This document shows positions 6,528 to 48,691 of a stretch of 64,000 nt of DNA, piece after piece. Position 1 is the first letter of the stretch, and each line of letters begins with the position of its first letter. The notes beneath the pieces are model-generated. The model was not told the DNA's origin. It was given only the letters and a program-made list of their open reading frames with translations, and did not search any database. Both the position numbers and the translations under genes were made by a program. The stretch comes from Salinispira sp. (GTDB lineage Bacteria; Spirochaetota; Spirochaetia; DSM-27196; Salinispiraceae), in assembly GCA_965602015.1 (NCBI GenBank), contig OZ271918.1, positions 352,001-416,000 on the forward strand, read 5' to 3'.

Positions 6528-7532
6528 GTGCGCGTCTGCCTTGTTCAGTTCGATCCCGCCTGGGAAAACCCGGAAGAAAACCGAAGACGGATACGAGCAT
6601 TAGTTGACCGGCTTTCCGGGATTGCAGCGGTGTCCCCACAGCCGGCGGATATGATAATTCTGCCGGAGATGTGCCTCACGGGGTTTACCATGAATCCTCA
6701 TGCACACGGTGCCGCTGAAAGTTCTACCGATGACTCGAGCGGCGATACTGACGGCGTAATTGTTGCCGCGACCGGCGCGACTGTCTCGGCCGATGGAGCA
6801 GCTGCTGATCACACGACCGATGCGACAACTTACGGCGCGACTGTCTCGGCCGATGGCTCGGCCGATGGAGCAGTTGCTGATCACGCGACCGATAGCGCAA
6901 CATACGGCGCGACCGATAGCGCAACATACGGCGCGACCGATATCGCGTTGGATGCCCGGGGCTTTTTTTCCCAGTGTGCCCGTTCACTGAACTGCGCAGT
7001 GGTGGCGGGATACGGAGAGTTGGACCCCGACGGAATGGCGTCGAACAGGGCGGGCGCCTGGAGCTCAAGCGGAAAGTTGCTTGCCGATTATGTGAAAAAT
7101 TATCCCTTCAGTTATTCTGGAGAAGACCGGGTTTACCGGGCCGGGAAGGACGCCTCGATGCTCAGCATCGGCGGTCTGCGCTTCGGCCTGTATATTTGCT
7201 ACGATCTGCGATTTCCTGAACATTTTCGGAGGCTTGCAGGTCAGGTTGATTGTTATCTGGTCGTGGCCAATTGGCCCCTGTCACGCATGGCCCACTGGCG
7301 CAGCCTTCTGGTCGCCCGGGCGGTGGAAAACCAGGCCTGGGTTATTGGCGTGAACCGCCGGGGGAAGGACGGCAACGGAATCCGTTACCCCGGGGTTTCC
7401 GTGGTTGTTGATCCCATGGGCGAAATATGCGCAGAGGGAGGAGAAGAAGATGAGCTTGTTTGGGCAGACATCAGCAAATCCTTCGTCGATGAGACCCGGG
7501 CTCGATTCCCCTTTCTGAATGACCGGAAATAA
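6528..7532 (+). CDS. carbon-nitrogen hydrolase (nitrilase/omega-amidase-like) with a low-complexity insertion
   Basis: LPEM / YVKNYPF / ICYDLRFPE catalytic E-K-C; ARAVENQ motif. Confidence 0.88.
   Translation: MRVCLVQFDPAWENPEENRRRIRALVDRLSGIAAVSPQPADMIILPEMCLTGFTMNPHAHGAAESSTDDSSGDTDGVIVAATGATVSADGAAADHTTDATTYGATVSADGSADGAVADHATDSATYGATDSATYGATDIALDARGFFSQCARSLNCAVVAGYGELDPDGMASNRAGAWSSSGKLLADYVKNYPFSYSGEDRVYRAGKDASMLSIGGLRFGLYICYDLRFPEHFRRLAGQVDCYLVVANWPLSRMAHWRSLLVARAVENQAWVIGVNRRGKDGNGIRYPGVSVVVDPMGEICAEGGEEDELVWADISKSFVDETRARFPFLNDRK
6773..6946 (+). repeat. in-frame nested tandem repeats (60-, 12- and 24-bp units) inside the nitrilase-family gene
   Basis: CGGCGCGACTGTCTCGGCCGATGG at 6773 and 6833; CTCGGCCGATGG duplicated; GCGACCGATAGCGCAACATACGGC at 6885 and 6909. 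Confidence 0.9.
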
Positions 7533-7568
7533 TATGAAGTGCCCCCAAAACAGCTGATTTTCCCCTCC

Positions 7569-8702
7569 TCAGGCCACCGCATAATCGGGAAGATCGATCT
7601 TCAGCGCACTCACCGGTGTCTTCCAGATCCGATGCCAGGTCTTCCATTGGCTGATGTCCAGCACCAGATGATGAACGAATGCCCGCTGTGTAAACATCCG
7701 TTTTACCAACATCAGTACCCGCCTTCGGTCAAACCCCGCAACCTCACCATGGCTGATATCGTTACGTCCGTTTATCCGATACGGCTTGAGCAGGTTATGA
7801 TAGGCGATGTAGATCATCATCCGCTCCATGCTGTTGTTCACCGATTTTGACCACTGCACACTCTGGCGGACATGACAGGATTGATCCTTTCGTATCTCCC
7901 GATCCAGGTAATTCACCGGAAACAGGGGGTTCTCAGTGGTCCTCACTACCCTCGATGAGGTTCGGTGATGGATAACCCGCCCTGCATTTTCCAACGCCGC
8001 CCAGTCCCGGTGAGCGAACAGCTCACGGCGGTATTCGAGTTTTTCATCGCTCAAGAGATAGCATGGCTTCTTCGATGAATAAGCCCTCCACCTGGGAAGA
8101 ATGGTGTTTATCACATCCCGGAAAGATCGCGCAATTTGTCCCCCTGCAATAGGATACCGGCGATTGAGCTCATCGCGCCGGCGCTTTTGCGCGGGGGTCA
8201 TCCGCCCTTTGCGCCGCATCTGCGCATAGTCGCAGGCATAGACAACCTGGCTGTCGCAACCCACCGCGAGGGTGAAGTTGTTCGGCCAGTATTGGCTGTG
8301 CACAAAGCTTTCAAACCCATCAACGGCAATATCCTCATCGATTGTATGATCATTCAATAACTGGGCCATGGCAGCGATTGCCTGACGGGACAATCGGCTC
8401 AGCCGATTGAGAATGACCTTGTCGGTGACATAAAACTCCCGGGCAATGTCGCGGATGCCGGAAGCCGAGTTGATCGAAGAGAAGATGCGCCGGTAATCGA
8501 GGCGATGATGTGCGCGATAATCGAGGTGAAACGCGCTTTCGCAGAAGTATCGACGGCAATGCTTACAGCGATAGCGCTGTGAAGAACCGAGGCGGCGACA
8601 GTGATAGTGGCCGTTTCGGACAAACCAGCATCGGCTTGATTCTCTGTCGCGATGATGCTGAGAGCAGTCCGAGTACGGACAGAATCGGGGGTAAAATGCC
8701 AT
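7569..8702 (-). CDS. IS1/IS1595-like transposase (Zn ribbon, HTH, DDE-type RNase H fold)
   Basis: CPYSDC...QRYRCKHC Zn finger; SGIRDIAREFYVTDKVILNRL HTH; acidic motifs IAVDGFES, LLSDE, VNYLDREIR; YIAYHN; AGGAG RBS. Confidence 0.75.
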   Translation of the reverse strand: MAFYPRFCPYSDCSQHHRDRESSRCWFVRNGHYHCRRLGSSQRYRCKHCRRYFCESAFHLDYRAHHRLDYRRIFSSINSASGIRDIAREFYVTDKVILNRLSRLSRQAIAAMAQLLNDHTIDEDIAVDGFESFVHSQYWPNNFTLAVGCDSQVVYACDYAQMRRKGRMTPAQKRRRDELNRRYPIAGGQIARSFRDVINTILPRWRAYSSKKPCYLLSDEKLEYRRELFAHRDWAALENAGRVIHHRTSSRVVRTTENPLFPVNYLDREIRKDQSCHVRQSVQWSKSVNNSMERMMIYIAYHNLLKPYRINGRNDISHGEVAGFDRRRVLMLVKRMFTQRAFVHHLVLDISQWKTWHRIWKTPVSALKIDLPDYAVA

Positions 8703-8808
8703 GGTAATCTCCTATGAGCGGTAATCGTGTCATAGAAGACTACTGGCAAAAGAGTTATGTTGATTCGATCAGCTGTTTTGGGGGCATATCTGAAAGCGGT
8801 GCCTCCCC

Positions 8809-8970
8809 GCAAGAGTTTTCATTGTTCTATTACAAAAATTCTGCAAATCGGTTTTGTCCGAGTCATATCTCCGCCATCTACGTGGCATGAAAATGTCCTT
8901 CCAGGGGTGTCGCAATCACTTTGCACAGCCTCGTATTCGCGCTGTAGCCCCAAAAACGCGCTTACCCCTG
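8809..8970 (-). ncRNA. putative bridge RNA / seekRNA of the IS1111-type element (boundaries approximate)
   Basis: Minus-strand segments GTTTTTGGGGC (8957-8947), AAGTG (8921-8917), TTTCATGCCA (8892-8883) and AGATATGA (8870-8863) match the target and donor junction; closing stem 8964-8970/8902-8908. Confidence 0.75.
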
Positions 8971-10014
8971 TCTGGACAAACCCGCTAATGCAGGATCTTT
9001 GTAATGCTGTTCTTTCTGCAATATCCAAAATATTGCTTCTGCTAAGTGCCGTGCCACGGCGATTATTGCAACCTTATGATTACGTTTAGTACGAACTCTC
9101 TTGTAGAGTTTTACCGTATGTCGGTTCGCCCAATTTCTTTGATTAAGACAGGTTACATTAGCTGCTTCAGTAAGTGCCCACTTCAAGTATCGATTACATG
9201 CTTTCGATGTTCGACCATAATGGATTTTACCTCCGCTCGAGTGAACGCGCGGCGTTGTACCACAGTATGATGCAAAATGTTCAGCGGTCTTAAAGCGATG
9301 TATGTCTCCAATTTCATGCACAATGACTGCGCTGAGAATAAATCCGATCCCGGGAATGGATTTCACCAACTTCATTTCAGCATTTTCATCAAACGCTTCA
9401 TGCATTCGTTGTTCGCAGTCGGTGATAGATTGCTTAATAAACGCGAGATTATCGAGCTTGAGTTTCATCATGCTGCGGGTATGCTCGGGGAGTTTTGGCA
9501 TTACCTTCTTCATGGCTTCTGTACCTGCTTTTCCGAACAGATCGCTCACATCATTGAATCGAAACCCATATTTCTCGAACCCGGCATGAATTTGATTCTT
9601 TTCACGTATCAACTCCTGAACGAACTGCATCCGGGTTCGATAGAGTTCTCGTTTATCACGCAATTCTCCTGGTGGAATCCACACAGTAGGCAGTGTGCCT
9701 GCTTTTTGAAGTTTATTGAGACCTTCAGCATCGAGTTTGTCAGTTTTGTTAAACATGGCCATCATCAATTTTGACTTACCGGCATGAACCAGCAAGGGGT
9801 TCATGCCGGCCTCCTCAATCTCATCCACGATCCAGTACCAACTTCCGATCGTTTCAAGTGCGACTTCCTGTCCCGGCTCAAATTGTTGGAGGAAATCACG
9901 AATACACCCGTGAGAATGTTCTATGCGCTGTGAGGATTTCCTTCCATTTTCGTTCTCAATTGCAGCCACGGTATACCGTTTATGGCTGTCGAGGGATATA
10001 ATAGTATTACTCAT
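8962..10014 (-). CDS. IS110-family DEDD recombinase/transposase
   Basis: ISLDSHK, ALETIG, KTDKLDA RuvC-like DEDD; SIPGIG...FASYCGTTPRVHSSGGK C-terminal domain with the conserved Ser; GGAGG RBS. Confidence 0.96.
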   Translation of the reverse strand: MSNTIISLDSHKRYTVAAIENENGRKSSQRIEHSHGCIRDFLQQFEPGQEVALETIGSWYWIVDEIEEAGMNPLLVHAGKSKLMMAMFNKTDKLDAEGLNKLQKAGTLPTVWIPPGELRDKRELYRTRMQFVQELIREKNQIHAGFEKYGFRFNDVSDLFGKAGTEAMKKVMPKLPEHTRSMMKLKLDNLAFIKQSITDCEQRMHEAFDENAEMKLVKSIPGIGFILSAVIVHEIGDIHRFKTAEHFASYCGTTPRVHSSGGKIHYGRTSKACNRYLKWALTEAANVTCLNQRNWANRHTVKLYKRVRTKRNHKVAIIAVARHLAEAIFWILQKEQHYKDPALAGLSRQG

Positions 10015-10111
10015 TTGGTTGTCCTCCTCCGGTATTTAATATAGACCCTGACTGGCAGGATCTCGGGGGAGGCACCGCTTTCATACCATCACTTCAAAAA
10101 TAATCCCGGCG

Positions 10112-11374
10112 TCACTCAAAATCCGATATTATCACCCGCAAATCCTCATAATCGGGAACCCGGTAATCTTTAGCCTTCAGGCGGTGGTCAAAATAAGCCC
10201 TGATCTGCTGCCTTTGGTATTCCATAAAGACCTGAGGTTTCACCGACCCGATCATACCCAGCCATTGAACTACCGGGGCATACATATAGAGGGTGGTGAA
10301 CTGCTGATGGGTGATGTTTTCGATCTGATACAGCTCAACCGGTGATTCTAATGCGGAGACAAAGGGCATAAGGTAACCGTCATTGATTCCTCCCTCCCAC
10401 TGAGCGCTGCGAAGGAAAAGGGATGGCAGCTCATATTCCCCCGATTCCAAGTCTGGCCGCCCCACCGGCTCGACCCAGGCATCCAGCCCGACGAGGGCCT
10501 GGATCGACGGATAATCCGTTGATTGCTCACCGGCAGCCTCGAGTTCTCTGCGGTAGTCAATTGCCAGCCGCACCATGGCTCCCCCGCCTGTGGAATGCCC
10601 CAAGAGGCCGATTCGCGATAGATCCAGTTTTCCCGCGAGAGATATACGGTGCTGAAGTCCGCCCGGCTCAGACCCGGCTTGAATGTCCATCAGGTGATCG
10701 AGGATAAATCTGTTGTCATCGGCGAAGGTTTGAACCAGTCGGGAAGACAGGCGGGGAAAATCCGGGGAATTCTCTCGAAGGGGCAGGATATCATCCCCGG
10801 ATTGGATGATTCTGCCGTCTTCCAAAACCACCGCTGCCGCACCGTAGCTGTGGTCTGCTGCGGCAACCAGGTAGCCGTGGCTGGCCAGCTCTTCGGCCAC
10901 ATCGACGTGAAGTCCCCGGTATCCCTCCCAGCCGTGCGAAATGATGATAACCGGGAACCGTTCCCCTTCCGGGCTTATCGCCGGATGAGCTCCTTCAATG
11001 CTGTTGGCCGCCATAAATCCGGTGTGATTCCAGATAAAGCCCGGGAAGCCGTGGGTGTTTACAATTGCCCGGATCTGACGTCTGCCTTCGGGAATCCATC
11101 GCAGCATCCGACGGGTATTTCTCTGTTCATCCGTCGGATACCAAAGCTGAAGCCGAATAGTCCGGGGGCCGGGTGTATCACCGCGAATTGGGGCATAGGA
11201 CTCAGCGCGATCCGGATCGGAAATATCATAGACCACACTGCCCACGGCAAAGGGGCCCGTAGGCTCCGGGAGGTTTCTGGGGGGCATGGCAATGCCCCAC
11301 ATAAAAACCACTCCGATTGCCAGAATAATGACAATAGTAAACAGCAGGATAAAAAGAAGGCGTTTGGCGCTCAT
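10112..11374 (-). CDS. alpha/beta hydrolase, PAF-acetylhydrolase-like
   Basis: PTGPFAVG, QLWYP, IISHG, GHSTGG nucleophile elbow, LDAW; N-terminal TM. Confidence 0.82.
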   Translation of the reverse strand: MSAKRLLFILLFTIVIILAIGVVFMWGIAMPPRNLPEPTGPFAVGSVVYDISDPDRAESYAPIRGDTPGPRTIRLQLWYPTDEQRNTRRMLRWIPEGRRQIRAIVNTHGFPGFIWNHTGFMAANSIEGAHPAISPEGERFPVIIISHGWEGYRGLHVDVAEELASHGYLVAAADHSYGAAAVVLEDGRIIQSGDDILPLRENSPDFPRLSSRLVQTFADDNRFILDHLMDIQAGSEPGGLQHRISLAGKLDLSRIGLLGHSTGGGAMVRLAIDYRRELEAAGEQSTDYPSIQALVGLDAWVEPVGRPDLESGEYELPSLFLRSAQWEGGINDGYLMPFVSALESPVELYQIENITHQQFTTLYMYAPVVQWLGMIGSVKPQVFMEYQRQQIRAYFDHRLKAKDYRVPDYEDLRVIISDFE

Positions 11375-17809: not shown

Positions 17810-17907
17810 GCTGAAGAATATACCTTCTGGTCTGTCAGGGTTCAAGATTGATTGCAACGGCCTGCCCTTCCGGCGATGGAGAAAACTGTTCTGCGTTTTT
17901 TAGATAA

Positions 17908-18051
17908 TGCCCCGAAAACAGCTGATTTAAACCCTCTAACATTTATATCAGACAGGATTTAACCGCTGTCCACCGCATGCAGAGGTAAATACTATGGTTA
18001 ATCATTCTCGTACCGTGTTTTAGCACTCGCAAATCAGCTGTTTTCGGGGCA
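17908..18051. mobile_element. 144-bp MITE/REPIN-like doublet of the repeat
   Basis: 21-bp perfect IR TGCCCCGAAAACAGCTGATTT at 17908-17928 and 18031-18051 around a 102-bp non-coding core. Confidence 0.85.
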
Positions 18052-18053
18052 GT

Positions 18054-48643: not shown

Positions 48644-48691
48644 CAGTGCCCCCAAAACAGCTGATTTAAATCAGCTGTTTTGGGGGCACTG
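48644..48691. repeat. perfect 48-bp palindrome made of two abutting copies of the repeat
   Basis: CAGTGCCCCCAAAACAGCTGATTT|AAATCAGCTGTTTTGGGGGCACTG. Confidence 0.95.

Follow-up and report, generated by a model that had tools for sequence, protein, structure and literature searches.

That insertion sequences (IS) of the IS110/IS1111 type can target the ends of other IS is already known, as is, since 2024, their guidance by seekRNAs or bridge RNAs, as far as the portions of the literature drawn on here extend. IS1383 of Pseudomonas putida H, said to have been described by Muller, Lauf and Hermann in 2001, reportedly targets the inverted repeats (IRs) of IS1384, and IS4321 and IS5075 of the IS1111 family, attributed to Partridge and Hall in 2003, are said to insert into the terminal IRs of Tn21-family transposons on plasmids. 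Here, we describe an IS1111-type element that sits in the terminal IR of another IS, the host IS, in a 64,000-nt stretch of a Salinispira sp. genome (GenBank assembly GCA_965602015.1, contig OZ271918.1, positions 352,001 to 416,000 of the forward strand); this whole stretch is referred to as the window, and positions are those of the window unless a genome coordinate is given.

In the excerpts of the sources used here, IS1111-group elements have sub-terminal inverted repeats (sTIRs) of 11-13 bp (PMC11187229) or 7-17 bp (PMC11208160), terminal extensions of 7 nt on the left and 3 nt on the right, occasionally 6 and 3 (PMC11187229), and transposases with the motif G-x-x-P-x4-S/T-G (PMC11187229). 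For ISEc11, ISPa11 and ISKpn4, the seekRNAs of which are described by Siddiquee et al. (2024, PMC11187229), the same excerpts give a linear site, a repetitive extragenic palindrome (REP) and attC as targets, and 93% of IS1111-group elements have a predicted bridge RNA in their right end (PMC11208160). Formation of a circle and subsequent recombination is the course given for the IS110/IS1111 family in the corresponding parts of PMC11187229 and PMC12288879.

We suggest that the element in the window is an active IS1111-type element, guided by an RNA encoded directly after the stop codon of its transposase gene (tnp), that targets the IR tips of a DDE-transposase IS and its MITEs (miniature inverted-repeat transposable elements); we put the probability of this reading at roughly 85%. 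The element and the host sequence that it interrupts comprise the following features.

8787-10091, minus strand: IS1111-type (IS110 family) insertion sequence, 1305 bp; nine full copies share these coordinates, and deletion restores the outer IR.
10084-10091, minus strand: left terminal extension TGATGGTA, including the core TG; the layout of TG plus 6 nt also occurs in most relatives with both ends located.
10066-10083, minus strand: left sTIR, 18 bp, starting with TGAAAGCG as in relatives; exact reverse complement of 8791-8808.
8962-10014, minus strand: transposase, 350 amino acids (aa), with a DEDD N-terminal domain and a PF02371 C-terminal domain with GTTPRVHSSG; the open reading frame (ORF) is intact in all nine full copies.
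8807-8812, minus strand: -35-like TTGCGG, from the sequence; relatives have TTGACA at the aligned position.
8791-8808, minus strand: right sTIR, 18 bp; exact reverse complement of 10066-10083.
8787-8790, minus strand: right terminal extension GATA; relatives have GAGA or GATA, then TG in the flank.
8768-8786, plus strand: inner part (19 bp) of the terminal IR that the insertion interrupts in the host IS, the final 2 bp (CA) being the core; read in the sequence and checked by script.
10092-10093, plus strand: the two outermost bp (CT) at the tip of the host IR, severed by the insertion; CT follows 68 of 119 empty ends and stands at 10 of 10 occupied junctions.

A preliminary description of this locus had an IS110 gene framed by the two 18-bp sub-terminal IRs with CA at both junctions, and held that deletion of 8787-10091 extends the outer IR match from 19 to 24 bp; all of this is borne out. 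The sTIR match can be extended in neither direction (script check), and chance would give ~1.5e-7 exact 18-mer IRs between two segments of 120 nt. CA is present at 8785-8786 and again at 10090-10091, as read directly and by script. When 8768-8786 is joined to 10092-10096, the resulting 24-mer equals 7535-7558 in reverse complement, compared with only 19 bp when unjoined, and this restored match extends no further, inward or outward. In the genome, which was searched as one 3.87-Mb contig, all nine full-length copies align over exactly 1-1305 of 8787-10091 at 99-100% DNA identity, and the boundaries proposed for the element hold because the copy flanks diverge immediately outside these coordinates. 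The ambiguity at the boundary is the shared 2-nt core, which is TG in the orientation of the transposase and CA on the plus strand.

In the transposase orientation, the element is ordered as TG-ATGGTA, sTIR, tnp and 175 nt of non-coding DNA that ends in the second sTIR and GATA, and TG comes next in the flank; 77 nt precede the start codon versus 175 nt after the stop codon (178 counted from the stop codon). The terminal extensions are 8 + 4 nt with the core counted on the left (alternatively 6 + 6 or 7 + 5), 12 nt in total; their asymmetry is kept, and their lengths differ from those of the family. For comparison, 80 related loci were fetched with an alignment query (a single-protein query gave none), and both ends were located by motif in 65 of them. 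Most of these loci share the layout, with TG, 6 nt and an sTIR on the left, and an sTIR and GA[G/T]A, then TG in the flank, on the right. Because most of the loci share TG at both ends, a 2-nt TG core appears to be a family trait. The 18-bp sTIR slightly exceeds the quoted family ranges, and the sTIRs of the relatives, with the same start, are 9-16 bp.

The transposase matches PF01548 (E 4.7e-10, 39.9 bits versus a cutoff of 29) and PF02371 (E 1.7e-26) in Pfam, and NF033542, 'IS110 family RNA-guided transposase', in NCBIfam (224.6 bits versus a cutoff of 140). Across an alignment of 30 homologues, D9, E54, D92 and D95 do not vary; they are probably the catalytic DEDD residues. Also invariant in these homologues are G252, P255 and G261 of GTTPRVHSSG (residues 252-261), which matches the motif G-x-x-P-x4-S/T-G. 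Judged by sequence, the gene is that of an IS110-family transposase, and the sTIRs together with the long downstream non-coding region are the IS1111 layout. The nearest proteins outside the source genome in a large protein collection are 52-60% identical among the matches listed, and the best relatives from a protein query across 20 genomes are 49-51% identical. At the DNA level, the element was not found in 40 relatives searched. A complete genome of the same genus had neither the element nor the IR repeat, and in a second one, which is 83% complete, the IR repeat was found at 47 sites and the element was not found.

The genome contains nine intact copies and one copy broken by an IS3-type element. 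The nine ORFs are all intact, and the copies vary at 24 positions, none of them within the guide segments described below. The copy in the window is the most diverged because it has six substitutions (8879, 9223-9224, 9473, 9595 and 9954) unseen in the other eight. In the broken copy (L010:191-1500; G000:C1:1707043-1708352), the IS3-type insertion is 1310 bp long, has HTH_Tnp_1 and rve ORFs and TGAACCGCCCCGG.. ends, and replaces 319 bp of the element.

The preliminary description had further proposed that the element targets a repeat family of this genome and had named beforehand, as the test, a tabulation of the flanks of every copy; this tabulation supports the proposal. In the orientation of the window, 7/10 left junctions read ATCAGCTGTTTT[G/C]GGGGCA, and CT comes first at the right junction in 10/10, so that the pattern is ..CA, element, CT.. 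throughout, i.e. site- and orientation-specific without target duplication. The uninterrupted 21-mer of the target (..CACT..) is present 63 times in the genome. A census of IR ends using a 19-mer with up to two mismatches gives 126 ends, of which seven are occupied and 119 empty. These ends bound 11 elements of ~1251 bp, three of which have one occupied end, and 30 MITEs of 130-150 bp; the remaining ends belong to four mini-elements of ~46-50 bp, consisting of two abutted IRs, or are solo ends (36). All seven occupied ends are CT-type versus a CT-type share of 75/126 overall (P = 0.024). Occupancy of C-variant (3/19) and G-variant (4/55) IR ends does not differ significantly (Fisher P = 0.36).

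Three copies lie outside this pattern on their left side. The interrupted copy occupies the eighth site, at the tip of a second MITE-like family, where the sequence reads CAACAAGCTTNGGGGCA before the junction and CT after it. This family has 19 ends at no more than two mismatches, some of them paired ~108 bp apart, and has the tip GGGGCACT in common with the first family.

G000:C1 196383/196491, 1709279/1709388 and 2753586/2753693: example pairs of ends of the second MITE-like family; one end of the family is occupied by the element.

At the ninth site, the element lies at a GTTTTSGGGGCA 12-mer outside the repeat family, where this 12-mer occurs only twice (~1 expected from base composition). 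The tenth copy is half of an exact tandem duplication. At G000:C1:3399413-3402532 (L007/L008), a unit of 255 bp of flank and the 1305-bp element is duplicated exactly, and both element copies are identical. The novel joint of this pair reads GATA-TG-GCATATAAC from the right end, and the site at the joint shares only TG with the guides. Such a joint suggests that the recombinase joined the DNA at a site without a match, that a larger circle re-integrated, or that the assembly is at fault.

It is conceivable that the element entered an IR only once and was then copied passively, as cargo of the transposing host element or through homologous recombination among IR and MITE copies. The copy in the window and the copy at 1213484 share the host-IS end and the inner flank, the 126 ends of the host family are available for recombination, and one pair of copies is a duplication product. 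However, the occupied ends span both ends of the full-length IS, several MITE sub-types, the second MITE family and one non-repeat site, and the outer flanks differ at each occupied end. Moreover, an interrupted host end without its tip should not be transposable, and the guide RNA matches exactly the 12-14 nt that the sites have in common and nothing beyond. We therefore consider passive spread improbable and favor insertion guided by RNA, for which the non-coding region downstream of tnp provides the candidate guide segments.

8849-8964, minus strand: conserved structured non-coding RNA module, predicted to be a seekRNA or bridge RNA, from the stop codon on; seen in an alignment with 28 relatives.
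8947-8957, minus strand: target guide T (GUUUUUGGGGC), complementary to the top strand, i.e. the core G and CCCC[C/G]AAAAC of the host IR tip; pairing holds at 10 of 11 positions.
8919-8923, minus strand: target guide B (CAAAG, then UG-AU at 8915-8918), identical to the top strand; homologous 5-nt segments equal the respective left flanks in relatives.
8887-8895, minus strand: donor guide D1 (CAUUUUCAU), complementary to the left-end sequence A-TG-ATGGTA; five Watson-Crick and two G-U pairs of 9.
8863-8870, minus strand: donor guide D2 (AGAUAUGA), identical to AGATA of the right end, the core TG and the first base of the left end (A); 8/8 match.

In the aligned post-stop regions, the 5' part of the module consists of UAA-GCGCG, a variable segment of 9-10 nt, a stem-loop, a variable segment of 5 nt and UGA[U/A]UGCGACA, and the 3' part of a variable segment ending in CAU, a GCCGC..GACGGC stem-loop, AGA[G/U]AUGA and a hairpin. 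In the RNAalifold structure, GCGC pairs with UGCG, giving an internal loop that encloses the first two variable segments around the stem-loop. For the three helices, 95.6% of the cells of the RNA alignment are paired versus 29-40% with the partner slid, and 29 cells are changed on both sides versus 9.9 in shuffles.

Guide T is the first variable segment with the preceding G, and its U faces the sole polymorphic position of the IR, C or G (a wobble with G). Guide B together with UG-AU corresponds to ..AG of the left flank, the core TG and the first 2 nt of the left end. D1 forms 5-8 Watson-Crick pairs of 9 in relatives. D2 matches 8/8 in 23 of the 24 elements tabulated and tracks right ends of the types GAGA, GATA and GATT. 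The predicted circle junction ..AGATA-TG-A.. is mirrored 8/8 by the D2 segment of the element's own RNA. The guide analysis used the 42 loci that passed the filters, 25 of them non-redundant with the element itself included; these 25 RNAs have more than 10 visibly different targets. Scored against their own flanks, the T guides reach 143 versus a permuted mean of 101.2 (standard deviation 5.6) and the B guides 106 versus 60.7 (standard deviation 4.9), and 0/10,000 permuted pairings reach the observed T or B score. The relatives L087, L088, L091, L093 and L098, from other phyla, adjoin tRNA-like T-arm sequences, ..GGTTCGAATCCCGT followed by TG.., or the complement, which suggests that these clades have been retargeted to tRNA genes.

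Alternatively, the transposase protein or the DNA structure of the IR could pick the target, the matches in the non-coding region being incidental. The IR tips are G-rich and adjoin a CAGCTG palindrome. On the other hand, the matching segments lie at homologous loop positions in 25 relatives, where they change with the respective target and ends, and dependence on a seekRNA or bridge RNA is shown experimentally in other family members according to the relevant parts of PMC11187229 and PMC11208160; we hold this alternative to be still less probable than passive spread. That the IR-like flanks belong to a larger composite, the true unit exceeding 1305 bp, would explain the 19 bp of left flank identical in seven copies but is refuted by the flank table, the uninterrupted 21-mers and the census, since 119 IR ends lack the element, three copies have other left flanks, conservation on the right is limited to CT, and relatives carry TG...GA[GT]A-TG ends amid unrelated flanks.

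Several observations weigh against RNA-guided targeting of the IR tips by an IS1111-type element. At the level of the matches, guide T leaves the core T unpaired and its U stands opposite C in the G-variant IR, yet 4/7 occupied ends are G-variant; guide B matches only 2-3 nt of flank and the core at most sites; D1 pairs at just five Watson-Crick and two G-U positions of 9; and the right junction of the tandem-pair copy does not match the guides. The permutations treat the related elements as independent, which they are not, and the count is therefore descriptive. The stem finder anchored no T guide in 5/25 RNAs, which were scored 0, and mis-anchored one; because these rows were kept, the observed T score is lowered. 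Rfam gave no match at E <= 1 across 7000-10600, and four public sequencing runs (one study, contigs only, from a listing that gave no RNA data set) were without joints, contigs being able neither to show nor to exclude a circle or an empty allele. Finally, the terminal extensions sum to 12 nt versus 10 nt (7 + 3) for the family in the parts of PMC11187229 used here, and identity to the IS4321 and IS5075 transposases is no more than 23-24%.

In the model that we propose, the transposase would work with the RNA from 8849-8964 of the minus strand. In the target pair of guides, the 11-nt segment would pair with the core G and CCCC[C/G]AAAAC, and CAAAG-UG would match ..AG-TG on the opposite side, while the donor pair, D2 and D1, would read the abutted ends of the element itself. 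By analogy with the family, the element would be excised as a circle in which ..GATA-TG-ATGGTA.. abut. These abutted ends would place a TATGAT -10 hexamer 18 nt downstream of TTGCGG (8807-8812), giving a junction promoter from which tnp and the RNA would be transcribed; upstream of tnp, the left end showed no sigma-70-like promoter. The circle would then undergo RNA-guided recombination at TG with an IR tip. As the target is the outermost part of the IR of the DDE IS and MITEs, insertion occurs between ..GGGGCA and CT, in one orientation and without duplication.

As to the consequences for the host, its sequence in the window spans 7538-8786 and 10092-10093, and the insertion appears to lie at least 2 bp from the host tip. 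Because the insertion severs the last bases of the host IR, the interrupted end should no longer serve the DDE transposase. Immobilization of the host IS, as the preliminary description had it, is thus plausible, and disabling of the end would be reversible if excision is precise. As a tentative and, in our view, doubtful extension of the model, the element might be a hyperparasite of the DDE IS/MITE superfamily, in which one guide RNA, with a U opposite the polymorphic position, covers both IR alleles and the tip of the second MITE family, insertion reversibly disarms ends 2 bp from the tip, and the recombinase also joins the right end to a non-matching TG, giving rise to tandem duplications.

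The host IS has two further features in the window.

7538-7558, plus strand: uninterrupted IR at the opposite end of the host IS; matches the interrupted IR.
7569-8702, minus strand: transposase of the host IS (377 aa); a zinc finger at the N-terminus precedes a DDE/RNase-H-like core, on fold-level evidence.

The preliminary description had called this host IS1-like, a designation that finds weak support. In its favor are a sub-threshold match of the transposase to NF033558 (IS1 in NCBIfam; 35.3 bits versus a cutoff of 100, residues 40-139 only) and a homologue, 38% identical, that one source names 'IS1 family transposase'; against it are the score below the cutoff and the lack of an IS1-type target-site duplication (TSD). 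The TSD of the IS1 family is ~8-9 bp. In the host family, no direct repeat of 2-11 bp (offset 0-7) was found in more than 10/39 paired elements, and beyond ..GGGGCA the flanks show 2-6 nt of reverse complementarity. The 377-aa protein matches no Pfam family, with noise only at E <= 10, and tblastn against plasmids gave no match. Its homologues are ~376 aa long, many of them on spirochaete records, and are named hypothetical, transposase-like and, once, IS1 family. The AlphaFold (AF2) model (pLDDT 87.3, pTM 0.88) matches retroviral integrases and Mos1 in Foldseek at probability 1.00 with low TM-scores (0.2-0.3), and C8, C13, C46, C49, D128 and D219 are invariant in the homologues. Because of the model matches together with the invariant cysteines and D128/D219, we regard the host protein as a zinc-finger DDE transposase. 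The modelled fold points to a DDE/RNase-H-like core behind a zinc finger and is not specific to IS1. 'IS1-like' is thus a reasonable label rather than a demonstrated membership, and the host family may represent an unclassified IS group.

Further ends of the host family lie in the window at ~13212, 17906-18053, 48645-48690 and 58262. Upstream of the host IS, an ORF for a carbon-nitrogen hydrolase (6528-7532) contains an internal run of imperfect peptide repeats (..TYGATVSADG..ADH.TD..), which separates the N-terminal part from the Pfam CN_hydrolase match (residues 141-324).

The locus and its copies provide a natural data set for RNA-guided target choice in one complete genome, with 126 near-identical candidate sites of which seven are occupied. 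The natural variants are informative, i.e. a C/G difference at one position read by a guide and a CT/GT difference past the core, and the two off-family sites delimit the minimal recognized sequence as ..TT-N-GGGGCA followed by CT. The picture of how IS110/IS1111 elements work is unchanged by these findings. They add a spirochaete-type lineage, as judged by the names on related records, to the IS110/IS1111 elements that home on mobile elements, and the tips of an unclassified DDE IS and its MITEs as a new target class. The novelty lies in this clade, in the host family and its MITEs, and in how the sites vary naturally.

In the literature on IS110-family elements in MITE or IS ends, to the extent covered here, the precedents are those named above, with none for the present host family. 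Like IS1383, as far as the accounts of that element used here go, the element described here is of the IS110/IS1111 type and specifically targets another IS at its inverted repeats. It differs from IS1383 in organism and host IS and in that its targets include MITEs, mini-elements and a second MITE family; in addition, guide RNA segments explaining the target choice are identified here. With IS4321 and IS5075, on the same partial basis, it has in common that its IRs are sub-terminal and that it inserts site-specifically into other transposons at their terminal IRs. In contrast, their targets are Tn21-family IRs on plasmids, and their transposases, taken from plasmid records, align with residues 47-338/339 (83-84% of the length) at 23-24% identity.

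The arrangement of the element agrees with the one published for the family, of which ISEc11, ISPa11 and ISKpn4 are examples. In the parts of PMC11187229 used here, these elements also have a short structured RNA in the non-coding region downstream of tnp, a match to the top strand 5' of the match to the bottom strand in the RNA (here, T at 8947-8957 before B at 8919-8923), natural retargeting through changed matching segments and transposases of 330-350 aa with G-x-x-P-x4-S-G. The targets differ, and unlike in those elements, the extensions total 12 nt here instead of 7 + 3, and donor-matching segments are also evident. IS621 differs in that its RNA lies upstream in the left end and its sTIRs are 2-3 bp, according to the sections of Durrant et al. 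(2024, PMC11208160) available, and in that the sequence alignment of the transposases is limited to the C-terminal half (residues 181-333). The IS621 transposase is nevertheless the best solved relative and a homologous recombinase (8wt6, E 7.6e-12), and the same sections describe a single RNA with target and donor loops and two guides in each around a 2-nt core, as in the design proposed here. Because the guide RNA matches the tip of the host IR, the locus clearly shows a mobile element that homes on a second one, for which there are precedents.

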